Shown here: positions 46,887 through 63,700 of the stretch, in pieces
Layout of the letters: each line of letters opens with the position of its first letter
Position numbering within the stretch: the first letter of the stretch is position 1
Virus record (IMG/VR): IMGVR_UViG_3300037467_003067
Span: 234,604 to 298,603 of that record
Length of the DNA stretch: 64,000 nucleotides
Direction: 5' to 3' (one strand)
Source of the DNA: a virus
Lineage: Duplodnaviria > Caudoviricetes
The notes under the pieces: model-generated
The model's database searches: none
Told to the model about the DNA's origin: nothing
Seen by the model: only the letters and a program-made list of their open reading frames with translations
Made by a program: the position numbers and the translations under genes

Positions 46887-48010
46887 TTGGTCTTTCCTTC
46901 AAGATCGGTCTTGATTCTCGTAAAGACGCTTGACCAATCGCCAAGCGTGTCCTGGCGATAGAGCCGGACCGTATCGTACCACGGGGTCGTCTCTCCCTCG
47001 CCTCCCCATCTCCACTCGCCGAAGTAAGAGAGTATTCCCCACGTTTCTCTTCTTAAGGACCCCGCCAAATGTAATATAGCTGTGTCGACCGATATGACCA
47101 GATCGGCTCCGAGAATATAGCAGGCAGTGTCGGTGAAGTCCTTGATCTCCATGGACCAGTCGAAAAAGTGAGGAGTACGCATTCCCCACTTGTCATTGCT
47201 GGGATGGAGTAGGTGGAGATTGACTCCGGGAACCGATAGATATTCAAACAGACTCAGCGGGCAAGACCTGTAGAAATCGTTCCGGTGTGCCGGGCATCCC
47301 GAATTACACACGATGATGTTGAACCCGTTCGGCAAGATTTTCTTGCCAATTCGGTCGAGACAAATCTCCAACGGGACCGATATTCCAGGGTCGTCCATGC
47401 CTAATAGATACGGCAGGCTCATGAGTGAGGCGAAATAATCGAACCTGGGGAGGCTCACACGCCCTTCGGGATCGCCGACGATGATTTGGTCGATATCGAG
47501 CCGGGAAGCCATCAGAACGTCGCGTAGGGGCTTGTAGGCGATGAGGATGATGTAGCACCGGTATTTCTGCTTAATACACTTCAGGTAGCGGGCGAATTGG
47601 ATGGTGTCGCCGCTGCCTTGCTCGCAATGGATTAGTATGGCTTTGCCGTCGAGGCTGGTCCCCTTGGTCCATAACTTCCGGATTCCGAATTGCTTGATAT
47701 AGAAGCCAAGGGGCGTGAAGAGGTGGAATCGTTGCTCGAATCGCTCCCATGCTTCCTGGTATTCCCGGCGATAGAAGTTGAGGTAGCAATATTCGAAATC
47801 GGCAAGTAGAAAATTGGGATCGAGGGCGAGTGCCTGGTCGAAATATTTCTGAGATTGGTCGAAGTCTTTGGTGTAGAGATAGAGACTCGCCAGACGGGTC
47901 AAATTTCTTGGGGTGGGATGTTGTGCAATAGAAGCGAGTGCAAGGTCGATTGTTTTATCGACCTTGCACTCGTGAAAGGCGTGGCGGGGATTACCCGATA
48001 ACGTAGTCAT
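46883..48010 (-). CDS. TPR-containing glycosyltransferase family 9-like protein
   Basis: TPR helices, EQGSGDTIQFARY, LMSLP, DF.DTA..I...DLVISVDTA.LHLAGSL, WRW....TPWY. Confidence 0.85.
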   Translation of the reverse strand: MTTLSGNPRHAFHECKVDKTIDLALASIAQHPTPRNLTRLASLYLYTKDFDQSQKYFDQALALDPNFLLADFEYCYLNFYRREYQEAWERFEQRFHLFTPLGFYIKQFGIRKLWTKGTSLDGKAILIHCEQGSGDTIQFARYLKCIKQKYRCYIILIAYKPLRDVLMASRLDIDQIIVGDPEGRVSLPRFDYFASLMSLPYLLGMDDPGISVPLEICLDRIGKKILPNGFNIIVCNSGCPAHRNDFYRSCPLSLFEYLSVPGVNLHLLHPSNDKWGMRTPHFFDWSMEIKDFTDTACYILGADLVISVDTAILHLAGSLRRETWGILSYFGEWRWGGEGETTPWYDTVRLYRQDTLGDWSSVFTRIKTDLEGKTK

Positions 48011-48848: not shown

Positions 48849-48879
48849 TAATTACATTTTCCTTAATTATAAACTATCG

Positions 48880-48914
48880 AGACTATCTGTACCCATAGTG
48901 GGTACAGATAGTCT
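48880..48914. terminator. 16-bp perfect inverted repeat, 3-nt loop
   Basis: AGACTATCTGTACCCA-TAG-TGGGTACAGATAGTCT. Confidence 0.55.
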
Positions 48915-48958
48915 TATATTAGTTACTTAAAAATTTTATAGAGCAAGTTCTTGAAGTT

Positions 48959-49831: not shown

Positions 49832-50407
49832 ATGTCAACGCAAATCAATCAATTCGGCAACGGTCTACAGGTCCTTATTCTCTGTGAGGCAACCGGAGCC
49901 GACAACTTCCTGGCGTTCGCGTCCGTTTATTCGCTCCAGAAACATTTGCCTGATGCCCAACTTGCCATTGCCTGTAAAAGACCAGAGCAAATGATGTTCG
50001 ATGTCTTCCCGTGGGCGTACAAATTGGGCATTCCGTTTTTTTACTACCAAAAAAATGAACCGACGGCTGTCGCGATCAAGCGAAATTATTTAAAGTTGCC
50101 CATACTCACCCTCTCTTGTGATATAATGTGCCTCTCGCCCTTTGACCAAGAAATTCTCGATCGCATCGACCCTAACGGCATCACCGACGGTTGCTCCCTT
50201 GCAAATTCGGTGAAGAGCCAAGACCTAAGTTCTCTTTGTTCAATTCAGGAGGGATGTGGATCATTTGTTCCCGCTTCCTGGATACATAAAGGTGGACATC
50301 CTTTCGGTCAGACCAATCTCTACGGAAGAGGAAATCTGACCAGGAATGAAAAAAGAGTTTTTGACCTATGGAAAAAACTCTGTCCAGTGTATGATGGCAT
50401 TCTCTAG
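49832..50407 (+). CDS. Hypothetical protein, possibly degenerate glycosyltransferase
   Basis: N-terminal ASVYSLQKHLPDA resembles GT-A N-termini; weak. Confidence 0.5.
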   Translation: MSTQINQFGNGLQVLILCEATGADNFLAFASVYSLQKHLPDAQLAIACKRPEQMMFDVFPWAYKLGIPFFYYQKNEPTAVAIKRNYLKLPILTLSCDIMCLSPFDQEILDRIDPNGITDGCSLANSVKSQDLSSLCSIQEGCGSFVPASWIHKGGHPFGQTNLYGRGNLTRNEKRVFDLWKKLCPVYDGIL

Positions 50408-50420
50408 GAGATATGTAATA

Positions 50421-50750
50421 ATGAAAAATCGCTTTAATTTCGATGACGGAGATTTCTCGGAAGACCTTTTCGACGAGTATGAAGACGGGGGGGACGGCGA
50501 GGAATATGGCGATGATGATCCTAGGGATTATCACGATCATCCCGGAGATGAGATCGCTAAAGCCATCGAGCTGGAAAGGAAAGACCTTAATCACCAGATA
50601 CTCTTCGAAACCATCAAGAGCCTGAGGAAGTCGTGGTTCTGGAATTTCCGAAGCCATAAGAGTCAGCAAAAATTAATCGCCGAAACTTATTTAACCTATC
50701 AGAGGCTCATCATCCTAGGCGAATTCGAGCGGATCGAATACCACGATTGA
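50421..50750 (+). CDS. Hypothetical protein with acidic N-terminus
   Basis: AGGAG RBS. Confidence 0.65.
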   Translation: MKNRFNFDDGDFSEDLFDEYEDGGDGEEYGDDDPRDYHDHPGDEIAKAIELERKDLNHQILFETIKSLRKSWFWNFRSHKSQQKLIAETYLTYQRLIILGEFERIEYHD

Positions 50751-50806
50751 GAGTCCGGATTTTTAGATAGGAAAATCGTGCTCACAATAGCACAGATAGG
50801 AAAAAT

Positions 50807-51145
50807 ATGCCGACTTATGATTTTGCCTGTAACGATTGCTCCGAAGAGTTCACGGAATTGACTCCCTTCGACTCTTCGGGAGCTTATTCCGGTGTCCATT
50901 GCCCCAAGTGTGGGTCGTCCCACAAGACCAAGGTCTTTGGTTCTTTCTGCTTTAGTTTCTCCAATCCTGAAGGAACTGATCGCTGGAGTAGCGACTCGCA
51001 TGGACACGACTACCGCTTCAAACACAACCTTCCCAAGGTCGTTGCTGAACGTGCCGCTGCAGAGATGGCGTCCCACATGGGAGGCTCTCCTTATAACGAG
51101 ATCGACGATATCACCAGCGGCGAGCATTTCGGCGATATCAAGTAA
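50807..51145 (+). CDS. FmdB family zinc-ribbon protein
   Basis: MPTYDFACNDC...CPKCGS. Confidence 0.8.
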   Translation: MPTYDFACNDCSEEFTELTPFDSSGAYSGVHCPKCGSSHKTKVFGSFCFSFSNPEGTDRWSSDSHGHDYRFKHNLPKVVAERAAAEMASHMGGSPYNEIDDITSGEHFGDIK

Positions 51146-51162
51146 TGCCCTTAAACAAAAAA

Positions 51163-51200
51163 GCTTGTAATGACCTGAGTAATCGGATATAGTATGACCT
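51163..51200 (+). promoter_or_regulatory. sigma70-type promoter, copy 1 of a 38-bp direct repeat
   Basis: TTGTAA-N17-TATAGT; 35/38 identical to 51484..51521. Confidence 0.75.
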
Positions 51201-51416
51201 ACGTGGAGAGCGGCGATTATTCTCGTTGTTCGGTTCCATTATCCTATAGGTTGCAAATATTGTGGGTGTCGCGAATTCCGCTCGGCTGGCTATTCAACGG
51301 ATCACATCGAGGCGAAGCACGCTGAAGATCGATGTGTTGTCCCTGAATGCAAAGCAGAATCGAGCGGATCATCTCCCACTTGTCTCGATCACCGACTCGG
51401 CTGCCAGTGATTTTTT
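51200..51416 (+). ncRNA. Candidate ~215-nt structured small RNA
   Basis: Own promoter; 5' hairpin, ~118-nt interrupted rod, 3' hairpin plus T-run. Confidence 0.55.
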
Positions 51417-51483
51417 AGGTAGCAAAATTGAGGCTGGTGAAAATCGGGAATTTTTTCAAATAAGTAAGTTAGCGAATAAAAGG

Positions 51484-51521
51484 GCTTGTAACGACCTAAG
51501 TAATCGGGTATAGTATGACCT
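51484..51521 (+). promoter_or_regulatory. sigma70-type promoter, copy 2, upstream of prkA
   Basis: TTGTAA-N17-TATAGT. Confidence 0.75.
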
Positions 51522-51653
51522 GTTGGGAAGAGCAGTGGTGACCCTCACCACTCAATACCCGAGACAATCACAAGCGTCTGAAGGGAACCCGAGACTAATC
51601 ACTTCTTTCCCACCGATTAGTTTCCTTATCTCTCATTTGAGGAAGGCGGAAGC

Positions 51654-53759
51654 ATGGATAGCTTGACGACGAAGACCGCGACGGCCCAGACGGATTTCCT
51701 GAACGAGTTTCTCGGTGAAGGGAACAAGGACGAGTTCCAGATCCTCAACGAGGAGATGTCCTACGCTGAGTACATTCAGCGGGTCCAGGAGAATCCTCGG
51801 TGGGAGCGGAGTGCTCACCAGCGGGTCTACGACATGATCATGGATGCGGGGTCGAAGACCTTCGTGAAGTATCGCAAGACCCTGACCCATTACAACTTCT
51901 TCGACAACGGCGAGGAAGCGATCTTCGGTCTCGACGAGACGCTCCACGAACTCGTCCAGCATTTCCGGGGGGCGGCAGGACACTTCGGGACTGAGAAGCG
52001 TATCCTTCTCCTCCACGGTCCGGTCGGCTCTTCCAAGAGCACGATCTGCCGCGCCCTGAAGCGGGGCATGGAAGACTACAGCCGCACGGACGGCGGGGCG
52101 TGGTATACCTACAAGTGGGTCGACCTCCCGACTGGTCCCGATGGCGTTTACAACAAGGAGACCGAGTTGGCGGCGATGTTCGAGTCGCCCCTGCACTTCC
52201 TGCCTCCCGATCGCCGGAAGCACCTCTACGCTCGCCTGAACGAGGTCATGCTGGAGCAGGTCCCTGCCGCCGACCGGACCAGCCAGTACACCTTGGTCCC
52301 TGAAGGGGAGTTGAATCCTCGCTCGAAGTTCTTCCTGAACTTCTTGCTCGCCAAGTACGACGGCGACCTCGCCAAGGTGTTGAACAACCACGTCCGCGTC
52401 GTGCGGATGGTCTACAGCGAAGCCGATCGCGTCGGCATCGGCACGTTCCAGCCGAAGGACGAGAAGAACCAGGACGCGACCGAACTGACCGGTGACGTCG
52501 ATTTCGCCCAACTGAACTACTTCGGGAGCGATTCCGACCCCCGTGCGTTCAGCTATAACGGCGAGTTTAACATCTCCAACCGGGGCGTCTTCGAATGCAT
52601 CGAGATGCTCAAGCTGGACAAGGAGTTCCTGTACGACTTCCTCGGTGCCTCCCAGGAACACGCGATCAAGCCGAAGAAGGCTCCGCAGGTGACGATCGAC
52701 GAGGTGATCATCGGTCACACCAACAACCCCGAGTACGAGAAGCTGATCAACGATCCGACGATGGAAGCGTTTCGCGACCGTACCGTCAAGATCGACGTGC
52801 CGTACCAACTCCAACTCTCGAACGAGATCCGGATCTACCAGCGTGACTACGGCAAGGGTCGGGTGCGTCAGCACGTCGCTCCCCACACGCTGGAAACGGC
52901 GGCTCTCTTCGCCGTCATGACCCGTCTCCAGGACGACAAGGACGGCAAGCTCGACCTCGCCGACAAGGTCAAGCTCTACGACGGCAAGGCTCTCCCCGGC
53001 TATACCGAGGACATGGTCAAGGAGTTCCGGGACAAGTCGGTCGGCGAGGGGATGAAGTGGGGTCTCAGCCCCCGATTCATCCAGGACCAGATCAGCGCCA
53101 CCCTGAGCGAGCGGCACGATTACATCAACCCGTTCATGGTCCTTGCCAAGCTCAAGGACAAGCTGCACACCAGCAGCCTGATCACCAACAAGGAGGACGT
53201 CGCCAAGTACGAGGTCTGCATCGACAAGGCGATCAAGGAGTTGAACAACATCCTCAAGACCGAAGTCCAGAAGGCTCTGGTCTCGGATGAGAACGCCATC
53301 ATCCGGCTCTGCAGCAAGTACATCGACAACCTCATGGCGTACATCGAGGAACGCAAGGTCATCAACCCCTTCACCAAGGCTGACCAGGAGCCCGATGAGC
53401 GGCTCATGAGGGAGATCGAGGAGAAGCTGGACATCCCCGAGCAGGGTGCCAACGACTTCCGCCGTCAGATCGCGATCTTCATCGCCGGTCTGAGCCAGAA
53501 GGGTCAGACCTTCGCGTGGGATTCCAATCCCCAACTGAAAAGGGCGTTGGAGGCGAAGCTGTTCGAGGACACCAAGGACACGATCAAGCTGTCCGCCCTG
53601 TCCCAGAACTCGCATGCCGCCGATCCCGACCAGCAGAAGAAGATCGACGCGATCAAGGACCGCCTCGTCAAGCAGTACGGCTACAACGAGCAGTCGGCGA
53701 CCGACGTGCTGAATTACGTTTCGTCCATCTTCGCACGGGGCGACGTGTCCGAAGACTAA
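51654..53759 (+). CDS. prkA: PrkA/YeaG AAA+ serine protein kinase family
   Basis: LLLHGPVGSSKST, GIGTFQPKDEKNQD..ELTG, SDPRAF...GE...NRG, IIGHTN..EY, AFRDR, G.SPRF, YGYN. Confidence 0.93.
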   Translation: MDSLTTKTATAQTDFLNEFLGEGNKDEFQILNEEMSYAEYIQRVQENPRWERSAHQRVYDMIMDAGSKTFVKYRKTLTHYNFFDNGEEAIFGLDETLHELVQHFRGAAGHFGTEKRILLLHGPVGSSKSTICRALKRGMEDYSRTDGGAWYTYKWVDLPTGPDGVYNKETELAAMFESPLHFLPPDRRKHLYARLNEVMLEQVPAADRTSQYTLVPEGELNPRSKFFLNFLLAKYDGDLAKVLNNHVRVVRMVYSEADRVGIGTFQPKDEKNQDATELTGDVDFAQLNYFGSDSDPRAFSYNGEFNISNRGVFECIEMLKLDKEFLYDFLGASQEHAIKPKKAPQVTIDEVIIGHTNNPEYEKLINDPTMEAFRDRTVKIDVPYQLQLSNEIRIYQRDYGKGRVRQHVAPHTLETAALFAVMTRLQDDKDGKLDLADKVKLYDGKALPGYTEDMVKEFRDKSVGEGMKWGLSPRFIQDQISATLSERHDYINPFMVLAKLKDKLHTSSLITNKEDVAKYEVCIDKAIKELNNILKTEVQKALVSDENAIIRLCSKYIDNLMAYIEERKVINPFTKADQEPDERLMREIEEKLDIPEQGANDFRRQIAIFIAGLSQKGQTFAWDSNPQLKRALEAKLFEDTKDTIKLSALSQNSHAADPDQQKKIDAIKDRLVKQYGYNEQSATDVLNYVSSIFARGDVSED

Positions 53760-53877
53760 AAGAACATGGGGGAAGGGCGGCGGACTTCCCCCATCTGAAT
53801 CCCGCCTTAGGAGTGTCTCACGCGACTGGCTCCCGCCAATCCTCCAACACGGTCGCGTGAGACATTTCTTTTGATTT

Positions 53878-54087
53878 CAATTTGATAGAGATTACTGGCA
53901 CGGTAATCCAAAAATATTTACAAACCCAAATGAAAGACAGTTGAACAGAAGATATCTGGATGAAAATCAAGATTCGGTCATAGAATCAATGGGATGGAAA
54001 GTCTTGAGGATATGAGAATCGGATTTTTACAAATTACGGGACACCACTTTAACTGAGTGGTTGTTGACGCAACTCCAAGGAGGGTAA
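53878..54087 (+). pseudogene. Remnant of a Vsr/DUF559-like endonuclease
   Basis: QFDRDYWHGNP...MGWKVLRI*ESD with in-frame TGA at 54013 where W is expected; no start; AT-rich. Confidence 0.7.
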
Positions 54088-54091
54088 GAAC

Positions 54092-55309
54092 TTGCCAAAA
54101 CGGATCGGTGAGGACCACAGTGACTTCCTTGACGTCATCGGCGGCAAGAAGCGCAAGCAGTTGAAGAAGTTCATTTCACGGGGGTCGATCGTCCGTAAGC
54201 GTGGGAAGAATGGCAAGATCAGCATCGCCATCCCTCGCATCGACACTCCTCGTATCGTTTTCGGTGACAATGACGAAGGGGTGGGACGTGGACCAGGCAA
54301 GCCCGGCGATGTCGTCGGTCGCGACCCGCAGCCTGGCAAGGGGAAGGGTAAGGGGAATGCATCCAACGATCCTGGCGAGGGGATCACCATCAACGTTGAC
54401 CTCGAAGAGGTTCTCAACGAGATGGAAAAGGAGTGGAAGCTGCCAACCCTCAAGCCCAAGCCGAATCAGGTTCTTCAGGAAGAGCGGATCAAGTACAACG
54501 ATATCGCTCTTGTCGGTCCTGAATCCTTACGGCACAATCGCCGGACCTTCCAGCAAGCCCTCAAGCGGTCTTGCGCGATGGGCAACCGTGAATTGATTTA
54601 TCGCCCCGGATTTGTCGATCCAACCCCGGCAGTCTCGATCATCCGCTCAGACAAGCGATATCGCCAGTACAAGGTAGTCCAGGAACCGTCCAGCAACGCC
54701 GCGATCTTCTTCGCTCGTGACTGGTCGGGATCGATGGATGAGACCAAGTGCGAGATCGTCTCCGACATGGCGTGGTGGATGGAGCAATTCATCAGCCGTC
54801 GCTATAAGCGGACCGAACGAGTCTACGTCGGTCACGACACGATCGCCGAGGAGTGCAGCCAGAAGAAATTCTACAACTACCGATATGGTGGTGGCACGAA
54901 TTGCTCTTCCGCTTTCCGGTTCATTTCTCAGCAGTTTGAGAACCGGTTCCCGCCGAACAACTGGAACATCTACATTCTCTACTTCACGGACGGGGACAAT
55001 TGGTCCGACGACAACGAGAAACTGATCGGTTGCCTCAAGAACGACTTCGGTCCTGAGGTCGTCAACATGGTCGGCGTCACGCAGATTCTCTCGTGGCGGT
55101 ACGCGAATTCGGTCAAGGCTCGCATCGACGAGGAACTTGAGAGCAAGGGTCTCAAATCCAGCGTCGTCCGTACGACGTTCATCGGCAACGAACAAAAGGA
55201 CGGCAATTACGGCGGCGGGACCTTGACCGAAGATGACAGGAACGAACAGATCATGCGAGCGATCGGCGACCTTTTCGGTGCTGATCGGAGTATGGAGAAG
55301 GTCGCATGA
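54092..55309 (+). CDS. yeaH: YeaH/YhbH (DUF444) vWA-like protein
   Basis: Gly-rich GVG.G.G..GD, L.LP.LKPK, RY, MIDAS DWSGS, GGT..SSA, WNIY..YFTDGDN; AAGGAGG RBS with TTG start. Confidence 0.9.
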   Translation: MPKRIGEDHSDFLDVIGGKKRKQLKKFISRGSIVRKRGKNGKISIAIPRIDTPRIVFGDNDEGVGRGPGKPGDVVGRDPQPGKGKGKGNASNDPGEGITINVDLEEVLNEMEKEWKLPTLKPKPNQVLQEERIKYNDIALVGPESLRHNRRTFQQALKRSCAMGNRELIYRPGFVDPTPAVSIIRSDKRYRQYKVVQEPSSNAAIFFARDWSGSMDETKCEIVSDMAWWMEQFISRRYKRTERVYVGHDTIAEECSQKKFYNYRYGGGTNCSSAFRFISQQFENRFPPNNWNIYILYFTDGDNWSDDNEKLIGCLKNDFGPEVVNMVGVTQILSWRYANSVKARIDEELESKGLKSSVVRTTFIGNEQKDGNYGGGTLTEDDRNEQIMRAIGDLFGADRSMEKVA

Positions 55310-55319
55310 TCCGATTCTT

Positions 55320-55359
55320 CGCTGATACGAAGTAGGTTTTTTCCTACTTCGTATCAGCG
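55320..55359. repeat. 17-bp perfect inverted repeat between yeaH and spoVR
   Basis: CGCTGATACGAAGTAGG-T6-CCTACTTCGTATCAGCG. Confidence 0.8.
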
Positions 55360-55461
55360 GACACATCCATTGGGCAAACACAGATACGGATATTCCAGTG
55401 GTTAACCTGATAGCTCATCTGTATCTCTCACCGGAAACGATCGAAATCAAGGAGCCTGAAG

Positions 55462-57087
55462 ATGGCGAAAAGTAAGATGATGAGTGGTTGCCCGGTCCTG
55501 ATGGGCGACAACACGATCCCTGGAGTCCGCATCCCCAAGGAGGTTCAGGATCAGATCCCGATTATCATGAAGGCGGTCAAGGACTTTGGATGCGATTATT
55601 ATCCTACTGTCGTGGAGTTCTTGACCTACGACGAGATTAGTGAGGTCGCAGCCTACGGTGGTTTCCCGGTTCGGTATCCGCACTGGCGATTCGGGATGGA
55701 ATACGAGGAGTTGTCCAAGGGTTATGAATACGGGATGCACCGCATCTATGAGATGGTTATTAATACAAACCCTTGCTACATCTATTGCCTTGACAGCAAC
55801 ACCCTGGTCGACAACGTGACCGTCGTCGCCCATGCTCTGTTTCACAACGACTTCTTCAAGAACAACATCCACTTCGAACCGACCAACACGAACATGCTCA
55901 ACAAGTTCGCCAATCACGCGACCAGGATTCGCGAGTACATGGCGCGCTGGGGCAAGGAGCGTGTGACCGAATTCATCGATTACGTGCTCCGGATCGAGAC
56001 TCTCATCGACCCCGTCAAGGGATGGAGCAAGAAGAAATACAAGGACCCTCTGATCAAGGACAAGCGGTCCTACAAGTTCCCGAGCCGTCGCGACGTCGGC
56101 GACCACACCTACATGGAGGAGTGGCTCAACCCCAGGCGGGAGCAGGACCGCAAGTGGAACAAGATCCACGAGCAGGAAGCGGCTTTTGAGATCGGCGCGT
56201 TCGGGCGTCCCGACAAGGATATCTTCGGTTTCCTCAAAGACCACGCCCCGCTCAAGCCCTGGCAGCAGGATGTCATCAGCATGCTCTACGATGAGAGCAT
56301 GTACTTCCAGCCCCAACGCATGACCAAGGTGCTGAACGAGGGCTGGGCGAGCATGGGTGATTCCAAGATGATGGCTCACTTCGGGCTGATCTCCTTGGGT
56401 CAACCGTCCCATGACGCCGGGATCTTCGAGTACGCCCAACACAAGATGGGGGTCCTCGGCGGCAAGTACAGCACTAACCCCTACAAGCTGGGCTATTGCC
56501 TCTTCCAGGACATCGAGGAGCGGTGGGACAAGGGTCAGTTCGGCAGCGAGTGGGAGGATTGTGAAGACCAGAGGGAGAAGGAGCGGTGGAACAAGAAGCT
56601 CGGTCTCGGTCGCGAGAAGATCTTCGAAGTTCGGAGGTGCTACAACGACCTGACCGCGATCAACGAGTTCTTCACGCAGGAGTTTTGCGACAAATACGAG
56701 TATTACGACTGGAAGCGATTCCCCAATGGGGAATACAAGATCGTGTCGCGTGACGCCAAGGAGATCAAGAAGAAGCTGATGCGTCGGCATCTCAACGGCG
56801 GTCTCCCCGACATTCGCATCACCGACGACAACCACTTGGGCAAGGGCTGGCTCTGCCTGGAACATAAGTGGGACGGTCGGACGCTCTACGACAAGTATGT
56901 GCGGGATACCCTCGTCGCTCTCAATTTCCTCTGGCAGCAGCCGGTGGTCCTCAGTACCAAGGACAAGAACAACGACGAGTTCGTTTACGTGTGCGAGGGA
57001 ACCGATTCCAAGCAGGTCTACCTGGCATCGCGTTCCGATTACGACAAGCATATCGTGAACAAGAAGCCGCAAGAGTCGGAAGCTTGA
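55462..57087 (+). CDS. spoVR: SpoVR/YcgB family protein
   Basis: AYGGFP.RYPHWRFG, IYEMVIN..PC, AH..HNDFFKNN, WQ.D......E.YF.PQ..TK..NEGWAS, NPY.LG. Confidence 0.93.
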   Translation: MAKSKMMSGCPVLMGDNTIPGVRIPKEVQDQIPIIMKAVKDFGCDYYPTVVEFLTYDEISEVAAYGGFPVRYPHWRFGMEYEELSKGYEYGMHRIYEMVINTNPCYIYCLDSNTLVDNVTVVAHALFHNDFFKNNIHFEPTNTNMLNKFANHATRIREYMARWGKERVTEFIDYVLRIETLIDPVKGWSKKKYKDPLIKDKRSYKFPSRRDVGDHTYMEEWLNPRREQDRKWNKIHEQEAAFEIGAFGRPDKDIFGFLKDHAPLKPWQQDVISMLYDESMYFQPQRMTKVLNEGWASMGDSKMMAHFGLISLGQPSHDAGIFEYAQHKMGVLGGKYSTNPYKLGYCLFQDIEERWDKGQFGSEWEDCEDQREKERWNKKLGLGREKIFEVRRCYNDLTAINEFFTQEFCDKYEYYDWKRFPNGEYKIVSRDAKEIKKKLMRRHLNGGLPDIRITDDNHLGKGWLCLEHKWDGRTLYDKYVRDTLVALNFLWQQPVVLSTKDKNNDEFVYVCEGTDSKQVYLASRSDYDKHIVNKKPQESEA

Positions 57088-62041: not shown

Positions 62042-62078
62042 AAATCCCTAGGTCAAGACTATCTTGACCTAGGGATTT
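62042..62078. terminator. 17-bp inverted repeat, bidirectional terminator
   Basis: AAATCCCTAGGTCAAGA-CTA-TCTTGACCTAGGGATTT. Confidence 0.75.
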
Positions 62079-63341: not shown

Positions 63342-63695
63342 GGGGGCGACACAGGATCGACAGACAATCGATTCCCTGAGATTGCGTGCAGGAGTTGGTC
63401 AAAGGCTCCTTAAAAATTGACCACACGCTTTAGTTGGCGAAAATAACTATAAAATGGCTGCCTAAGGGCAAGCCGAAGACTTAAGAAGCTCTGTCAGCGC
63501 GTCTGAAAGTCTTTCGTAAATCTGACTGGTTTCGGGTCGATGCGGGTCACGCCCAGAAACGAGATATGCTACCGGCTGGTCCAAAGAAGGCTTTGTTACT
63601 TGAGCCTCGGCGGGCGAGAAAGAATCAATTAACTACGCACGTAGTAATCCTAGGATAGTTTGGACTGGACCGGGTGGCAGTGACCCGCGCCTCCA
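63342..63695 (+). ncRNA. ssrA: tmRNA, one-piece; tag (A)GENNYKMAA at 63436..63465
   Basis: Acceptor stem GGGGGCG/CGCCTCC-A with G3.U70; GGATCGAC D-loop; TAGTT before resume codon; T-arm CGGGT-GGCAGTG-ACCCG. Confidence 0.92.
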
Positions 63696-63700
63696 CTTGC

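Follow-up and report, generated by a model that had tools for sequence, protein, structure and literature searches.

Why does a huge soil phage carry what looks like the promoter of its prkA operon twice, and what is the 283-nt spacer that separates the two copies? The locus lies in a window of 64,000 nucleotides (the whole stretch of DNA analysed here), which forms the end of an IMG/VR record 298,603 bp long; the record is classed as a provirus, and CheckV puts its completeness at 59%. A 585-kb contig on record encodes a PrkA identical to that of this phage, and the best GenBank phage match comes from an uncultured 595-kb phage (59% identity); the record is therefore that of a huge soil phage. 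The operon belongs to a six-gene neighbourhood (window 49832-57087) formed by orf191, the acidic orf134, a Zn-ribbon gene, prkA, yeaH and spoVR, which recurs in huge-phage contigs, and orf191, orf134 and the Zn-ribbon protein may be further members of a phage PrkA module. The elements around the repeat are the following.

50807-51145, plus strand: Zn_ribbon_8 (FmdB-like) gene, 112 aa (Pfam PF09723, E 1.6e-10)
51154-51200, plus strand: putative promoter copy P1, with -35 TTGTAA at 51165-51170, a 17-nt spacer and -10 TATAGT at 51188-51193
51475-51521, plus strand: putative promoter copy P2, before the prkA leader, with its -35 at 51486-51491 and its -10 at 51509-51514
51522-51653, plus strand: prkA 5' leader, with a hairpin AGTGGTGA/TCACCACT at 51534-51552 (repeat search and fold)
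51654-53759, plus strand: prkA (Pfam)
54092-55309, plus strand: yeaH/DUF444 (Pfam)
55462-57087, plus strand: spoVR (Pfam)

The arrangement could reflect an extra promoter acting on prkA, a scar without function, a stand-alone RNA acting in trans, or a small protein gene, and we weighed each of these against the same set of analyses.

An earlier note on this DNA had described two promoter copies identical at 35 of 38 positions and 321 bp apart, and both a degenerate 38-mer match and a repeat search recovered this core at 51163-51200 and 51484-51521. The direct repeat reaches 47 nt (51154-51200 and 51475-51521, 87% identical, spacing 321), and none of 100 shuffles matched the pair. Each copy consists of an A-rich stretch, TTGTAA, a 17-nt spacer and TATAGT, and agrees with the sigma-70 consensus at 9 of 12 positions. 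The repeat begins 9 nt past the stop codon of the Zn-ribbon gene and runs from about -47 to about +1, which is exactly one promoter cassette, the similarity ending at the predicted start site; for P1 this site would lie at about 51200-51202. With up to 9 substitutions allowed, no third copy was found in the window or in the whole 298,603-bp record. A unique repeat that coincides with one promoter cassette argues for a tandem promoter before prkA. Both copies are plausible promoters because relatives carry a single sigma-70-like promoter directly before prkA. None of the other local direct repeats of the record is a promoter pair. A 51-nt direct repeat (92%) at 10391-10441 and 10610-10660 lies inside a minus-strand ORF (9751-10761) and is an internal protein repeat, not a regulatory duplication.

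The divergence of the two copies can be read in more than one way. They have drifted 13% apart, which would suit a fairly old scar, but the hexamers and the 17-nt spacing are intact in both, which a functionless relic does not readily account for. None of the six differences falls in a hexamer; chance would produce this about once in six. Conservation of the stretch between the hexamers had been ascribed to a shared regulator site or to recent duplication; duplication fits equally well, and the regulator site is unproven. In and before P1, motifs recur in steps of about 25 nt, GTAATGCCCT at 51142 (over the Zn-ribbon stop codon), GTAATGACCT at 51167 and GTATGACCT at 51192, and P2 retains two of the three, the first as GTAACGACCT. 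This series at 51142-51200 could be a protein site, or could have arisen by chance.

We compared the locus with 80 IMG/VR loci (L002-L081) whose PrkA is 55-65% identical to that of this phage, the nearest relatives compared at the DNA level being only 64-65% identical in PrkA. The order orf191, orf134, Zn-ribbon, prkA, yeaH, spoVR is kept among these relatives, in which tblastn detected orf191 in 51 loci, orf134 in 24 and the Zn-ribbon gene in 70 (35-54% identity for the latter among the 30 best listed and the tabulated loci). Between the stop codon of the Zn-ribbon gene and the start of prkA lie at most 241 nt in 64 of the 70 loci (median about 65 nt), versus 508 nt here. In the short gaps of the relatives one typically finds a strong terminator, a single sigma-70-like promoter and a leader. 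Many relatives have the strong terminator just after the Zn-ribbon gene, whereas none is present here between the Zn-ribbon stop codon and P1. The extended -35 element CTTGTAATG or close variants of it precede prkA in L072, L011, L067, L060, L063, L080, L045 and L069, and L072 also shares the -10 TATAGT of this phage, which suggests a conserved promoter class for the prkA operon across the relatives. None of them carries this promoter in duplicate.

The spacer is equally isolated. Searched with blastn, nhmmer and tblastx against the 80 PrkA loci and the rest of the record, it gave chance-level matches only, and no counterpart was found in the 80 viral loci, five whole relative records or three metagenome loci. 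Exact-pattern scans of IMG/VR with the promoter and with the apical hairpin returned 0 matches, and blastn of 50800-51900 against GenBank phages returned none. A metagenome scan with the Zn-ribbon protein found at least five relatives at up to 54% identity, none closer among the matches listed. In a genome scan with PrkA the best match, at 65% identity, was on a 546-kb contig that had been binned as a Bacteriovoracaceae MAG; none of the other 79 loci exceeded 54%, and all of these are filed under bacterial genome records. Closer PrkA proteins are on record, at 75%, 70% and 67% identity. Judged by these comparisons, the 321-bp unit, made up of the spacer and one copy of the promoter, is an insertion or duplication specific to this lineage, since the relatives have a median gap of about 65 nt, a single promoter and no match to the spacer. 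The enlarged gap, the similar but never duplicated promoter of the relatives, the missing terminator and the matchless spacer all favour a tandem promoter added to the operon. Confinement to one lineage also suits functionless debris, and the absence of a homologue in relatives counts against a stand-alone regulatory RNA.

At least part of the stretch is present in ten public sequencing runs. Copies identical to it occur in four DNA runs from soil or rhizosphere. Contigs of the runs X4, X5 and X8 cover 51073-51479, 51070-51342 and 51166-51467 with zero differences; over the parts covered, these three show neither variants nor a joint that skips the 321-bp unit. The phage population is thus clonal. 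Identity across four independent soil or rhizosphere runs weighs somewhat against functionless debris, although what it demonstrates is merely a clonal population. Covariation in related phages, which the earlier note had put forward as a check, found nothing to work on: the relatives have no counterpart of the spacer, and the other copies are all identical and so offer no variants on which covariation could be assessed. The single metatranscriptome run (X10) has contigs over prkA-like coding sequence only and is uninformative on the spacer either way. One of these rhizosphere contigs, of 203 nt, is 95.6% identical to the 5' part of prkA (window 51684-51886), which places a close relative of this phage's prkA in an RNA library.

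The predicted folds of the spacer were then considered. The 5' hairpin, the four stem pairs of a long rod and the 3' hairpin with its T-run that had been noticed by eye were all recovered, and the elements can be listed as follows, together with the terminator-like sites that serve for comparison.

51203-51239, plus strand: 5'-terminal hairpin of the predicted P1 transcript, 14 pairs of which 4 are G.U (-15.2 kcal/mol, z -2.3 to -2.5)
51262-51379, plus strand: irregular 118-nt hairpin, or rod, about 42 pairs with small bulges, symmetric on both strands
51377-51416, plus strand: weak hairpin followed by U6 (51411-51416), candidate leaky terminator (-6.6 kcal/mol, z -0.7)
51434-51456, plus strand: second weak hairpin of 5 bp followed by T6 (51451-51456), within an AT-rich tail of 34% GC (fold and direct reading)
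47935-47972, minus strand: perfect 16-17-bp terminator-like hairpin
48879-48915, plus strand: perfect 16-17-bp terminator-like hairpin
62042-62078, minus strand: perfect 16-17-bp terminator-like hairpin

The 5'-terminal hairpin does not form on the minus strand; it is specific to the plus strand because four of its pairs are G.U. Both predicted transcripts open with such a stable hairpin (z -2.5 for P1 and -2.9 for P2), and the prkA leaders of relatives tend likewise to a 5' hairpin (mean z -1.3, n=12). This shared tendency speaks for P1 being a real start site, in favour of a tandem promoter, and a hairpin located at the predicted start is awkward for a mere scar.

The rod is built from the perfect 8-nt inverted repeats TCCGCTCG 51277/CGAGCGGA 51361 and CACATCGA 51303/TCGATGTG 51329, and from GTGGG 51262/CCCAC 51375 and ATTCA 51292/TGAAT 51344, the latter two seen by direct reading. 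Folded over 51255-51385 (131 nt), it gives -48.2 kcal/mol (z -3.0) on the plus strand and -45.8 kcal/mol (z -3.1) on the minus strand. Since the minus strand folds as well as the plus strand, the rod is simply an imperfect palindrome. Its rank among 7,462 genome-wide windows of 131 nt is in the top 2.4% after correction for GC, so as modelled it is structured and not exceptional. As a whole, the 220-nt candidate RNA (z -1.2) folds no better than its shuffles. When a covariance model of the rod was run against 85 sources (708 kb of loci) and the five whole relative records, one of which is complete at 572 kb, it matched only the rod itself.

The 3' signals of the spacer are weak. The hairpin at 51377-51416 went uncalled in the terminator scan, and it is stronger on the minus strand (-11.6 kcal/mol), where no U-run follows it. 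The 3' hairpin of the spacer is far weaker than the phage's clearest terminator-like sites, which are perfect 16-17-bp hairpins that in some cases lack a clean U-run.

Taken with the comparisons above, these results lead us to prefer, tentatively, a tandem-promoter arrangement in which a non-coding P1 transcript partly reads into prkA and whose role would lie in cis or in the doubling of the promoter itself. An extra copy of the prkA promoter and a 283-nt non-coding spacer would have been added to a normally short gap between the Zn-ribbon gene and prkA, the probable origin being a duplication of the cassette (about -47 to +1) or a recombination event at the promoter. The host sigma-70 polymerase would read P1 and P2 simultaneously. 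The P1 transcript would start with a protective 5' hairpin, continue through the 118-nt irregular hairpin, and then meet the two weak hairpin-plus-U6 signals. Because the signals after the rod are weak, a mixture is to be expected: some P1 transcripts would stop at a length of about 215-255 nt as non-coding RNA, and the remaining ones would cross P2 to give a long-leader isoform of the prkA-yeaH-spoVR mRNA. The weakness of the 3' hairpin relative to the 16-17-bp stems and the unsupported ORFs of the spacer (see below) both agree with this.

Any function of the unit is most likely in cis. P1 could provide extra or buffered transcription into prkA; the Zn-ribbon gene has no terminator of the kind found in relatives, and the spacer could provide its read-through transcription with a 3' structure and insulation; and the rod might be a processing hairpin of the RNase III type. 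Some results sit less well with a tandem promoter of this kind, namely the z of -1.2 for the whole unit and the accessibility of the prkA ribosome site, which was 0.33 unpaired with the spacer against 0.34 without it, and therefore shows no visible cis effect on translation. A purely neutral relic fits nearly as well.

Such a relic, a fairly old duplication or recombination scar whose spacer is a decayed insert, perhaps a defunct small gene or a piece of foreign DNA, and whose P1 product has no role, is accordingly the closest competitor, possible in our judgement and somewhat less probable than the tandem promoter. Besides the lineage restriction and the drift of the two copies, it gains from the modest structure statistics (z -1.2 for the whole, top 2.4% for the rod); the intact hexamers and spacing, the placement of the 5' hairpin and the identity between runs pull the other way.

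The original proposal for this locus was a discrete structured RNA (51201-51416, about 216 nt) that shares the regulation of prkA and acts in trans on a protein or on mRNAs, and we consider it unlikely. Such an RNA would have its own predicted promoter copy, the strand-specific 5' hairpin, a rod with z -3.0 and a hairpin followed by U6, and the spacer is without coding signal and has a GC content of 50% as compared with 44 +/- 4.5% in ORF-free gaps of at least 200 nt. Against it stand the weak 3' hairpin (-6.6 kcal/mol, passed over by the terminator scan), a rod that folds equally well on either strand and ranks no higher than the top 2.4% of genome-wide windows, and the lack of any Rfam match worth the name. 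Predicted duplexes of the spacer with the prkA leader and with the start regions of prkA, yeaH, spoVR and the Zn-ribbon gene were no better than those of shuffles, the unrestricted duplex energies not being meaningful in themselves. A variant in which a copy of the prkA promoter came to lie before foreign or de novo sequence, giving rise to a young, lineage-specific, structured regulatory RNA of about 215 nt made in step with the PrkA-YeaH-SpoVR starvation module, appears to us similarly doubtful; such an RNA might be a processed partner, serve as a protein decoy, or attenuate under RNase III control.

The rod with its bubbles had also been likened to 6S RNA, and this likeness was not borne out. 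6S RNA binds the sigma-70 holoenzyme and templates pRNA, and it is marked by a closing stem that joins its 5' and 3' ends and by a large central bubble flanked by long helices. As in 6S RNA (RF00013 and related models), the spacer RNA would be about 200 nt long, largely double-stranded and provided with a promoter. Unlike in 6S RNA, there is no pairing between its two ends, and the rod is a single hairpin inside the molecule: in both the minimum-energy and the centroid fold, the 5' end forms a separate hairpin and the rod is internal with small bulges, and neither fold contains the closing stem or the large central bubble. A cmscan of 51000-51800 with 4,227 Rfam families at E<=10 yielded only a spurious uc_338 and no 6S, and a scan of the window at the Rfam gathering thresholds found a tmRNA at 63342-63698 and nothing at the spacer. 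With no 6S model match and with the end-to-end stem and the central bubble lacking, the comparison is unsupported, and we rejected a 6S-type RNA for the spacer. Nothing in these analyses shows the spacer to be a 6S-like or otherwise functional RNA; it may be a small RNA or a long leader.

Finally, the coding potential of the spacer was assessed. The gene caller picked an 83-aa GTG ORF at 51262-51513, which runs through P2 and, on direct reading, has no good ribosome site. It had no match in Pfam or PHROG, and HMMER against 1.84 billion representatives returned the ORF's own record and one borderline match (E 9.7e-4); an 83-aa entry 99% identical to it exists. Its codon score of 0.08 falls between those of real and off-frame pieces. 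Its periodic-Markov score is -0.027; 29% of spurious ORFs do at least as well, and only 3.7% of real-gene pieces do as badly. The possibility that this ORF is itself the conserved element, raised at the outset, thus finds neither a homologue nor a coding signal behind it. A second, stop-to-stop frame on the plus strand (51198-51410) has 70 codons with 7 Cys and 4 His, arranged as CxxC ... HxxxxH, then Cx4C and Cx6C, a richness in Cys and His equalled by 1.1% of spurious frames. This frame contains no ATG, GTG or TTG, has no Pfam match and no homologue, gave one PHROG match at E 0.059, and its coding score of -0.065 is like that of a spurious frame. It could at most be a dead zinc-finger microgene, as would befit functionless debris, or a product of chance. 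Open frames of both lengths are expected from the composition of the spacer (p 0.13-0.29), and tblastx of the spacer against relatives gave nothing. From this evidence the spacer is most likely non-coding.

A small protein gene, whether the 83-aa ORF or the 70-codon frame (perhaps initiated at ATT 51216 behind GGAG 51205), is therefore very improbable, the gene call, the intermediate codon score and the Cys/His spacing being outweighed by the overlap with P2, the missing start, ribosome site and homologues, and scores typical of spurious frames. A leader-peptide attenuator was likewise rejected, as direct reading found no short ORF in the spacer with a ribosome site and a canonical start.

The tandem-promoter arrangement can be set beside known systems. 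Promoter-early stem-loop (PeSL) cassettes of T4-type phages consist of repeated sigma-70-like promoters with an AT-rich upstream part and a stem-loop. A genome has about 50 of them, clustered in hyperplastic regions and usually before ORFans. They flank small lineage-specific inserts, and recombination between copies explains indels between related phages (Arbiol et al. 2010, PMC2839356; Comeau et al. 2014, PMC4122927). The present locus resembles them in its repeated sigma-70-like promoter with AT-rich upstream part (87% over 47 nt) and in that the copies flank an insertion or deletion relative to other phages (508 nt versus at most 241 nt in 64 of 70). It differs in having only two copies in 298.6 kb of a record that is 59% complete, in that the two copies are followed by stem-loops without sequence similarity to each other, and in an insert that is apparently non-coding.

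Phage morons are extra transcription units with their own promoter and terminator that carry a protein gene between two conserved genes. Like them, the P1 unit would run from a promoter to a weak terminator between genes that are adjacent in relatives; unlike them, it lacks a supported ORF, and its promoter duplicates that of its neighbour. RNase III cuts long leader hairpins in T7 early transcripts and in the rnc and pnp leaders of E. coli. The rod resembles such hairpins in its length, its irregularity and its intergenic or leader position upstream of an operon.

As it stands, the stretch mainly shows promoter cassettes marking insertion sites in huge-phage genomes. More general is the conserved six-gene neighbourhood with its conserved prkA promoter motif across about 70 huge-phage contigs. 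If the P1 product were a working RNA, it would be a phage regulatory RNA born of promoter duplication beside a horizontally acquired bacterial stress module, and it would give a handle on how huge phages time the expression of prkA-yeaH-spoVR.
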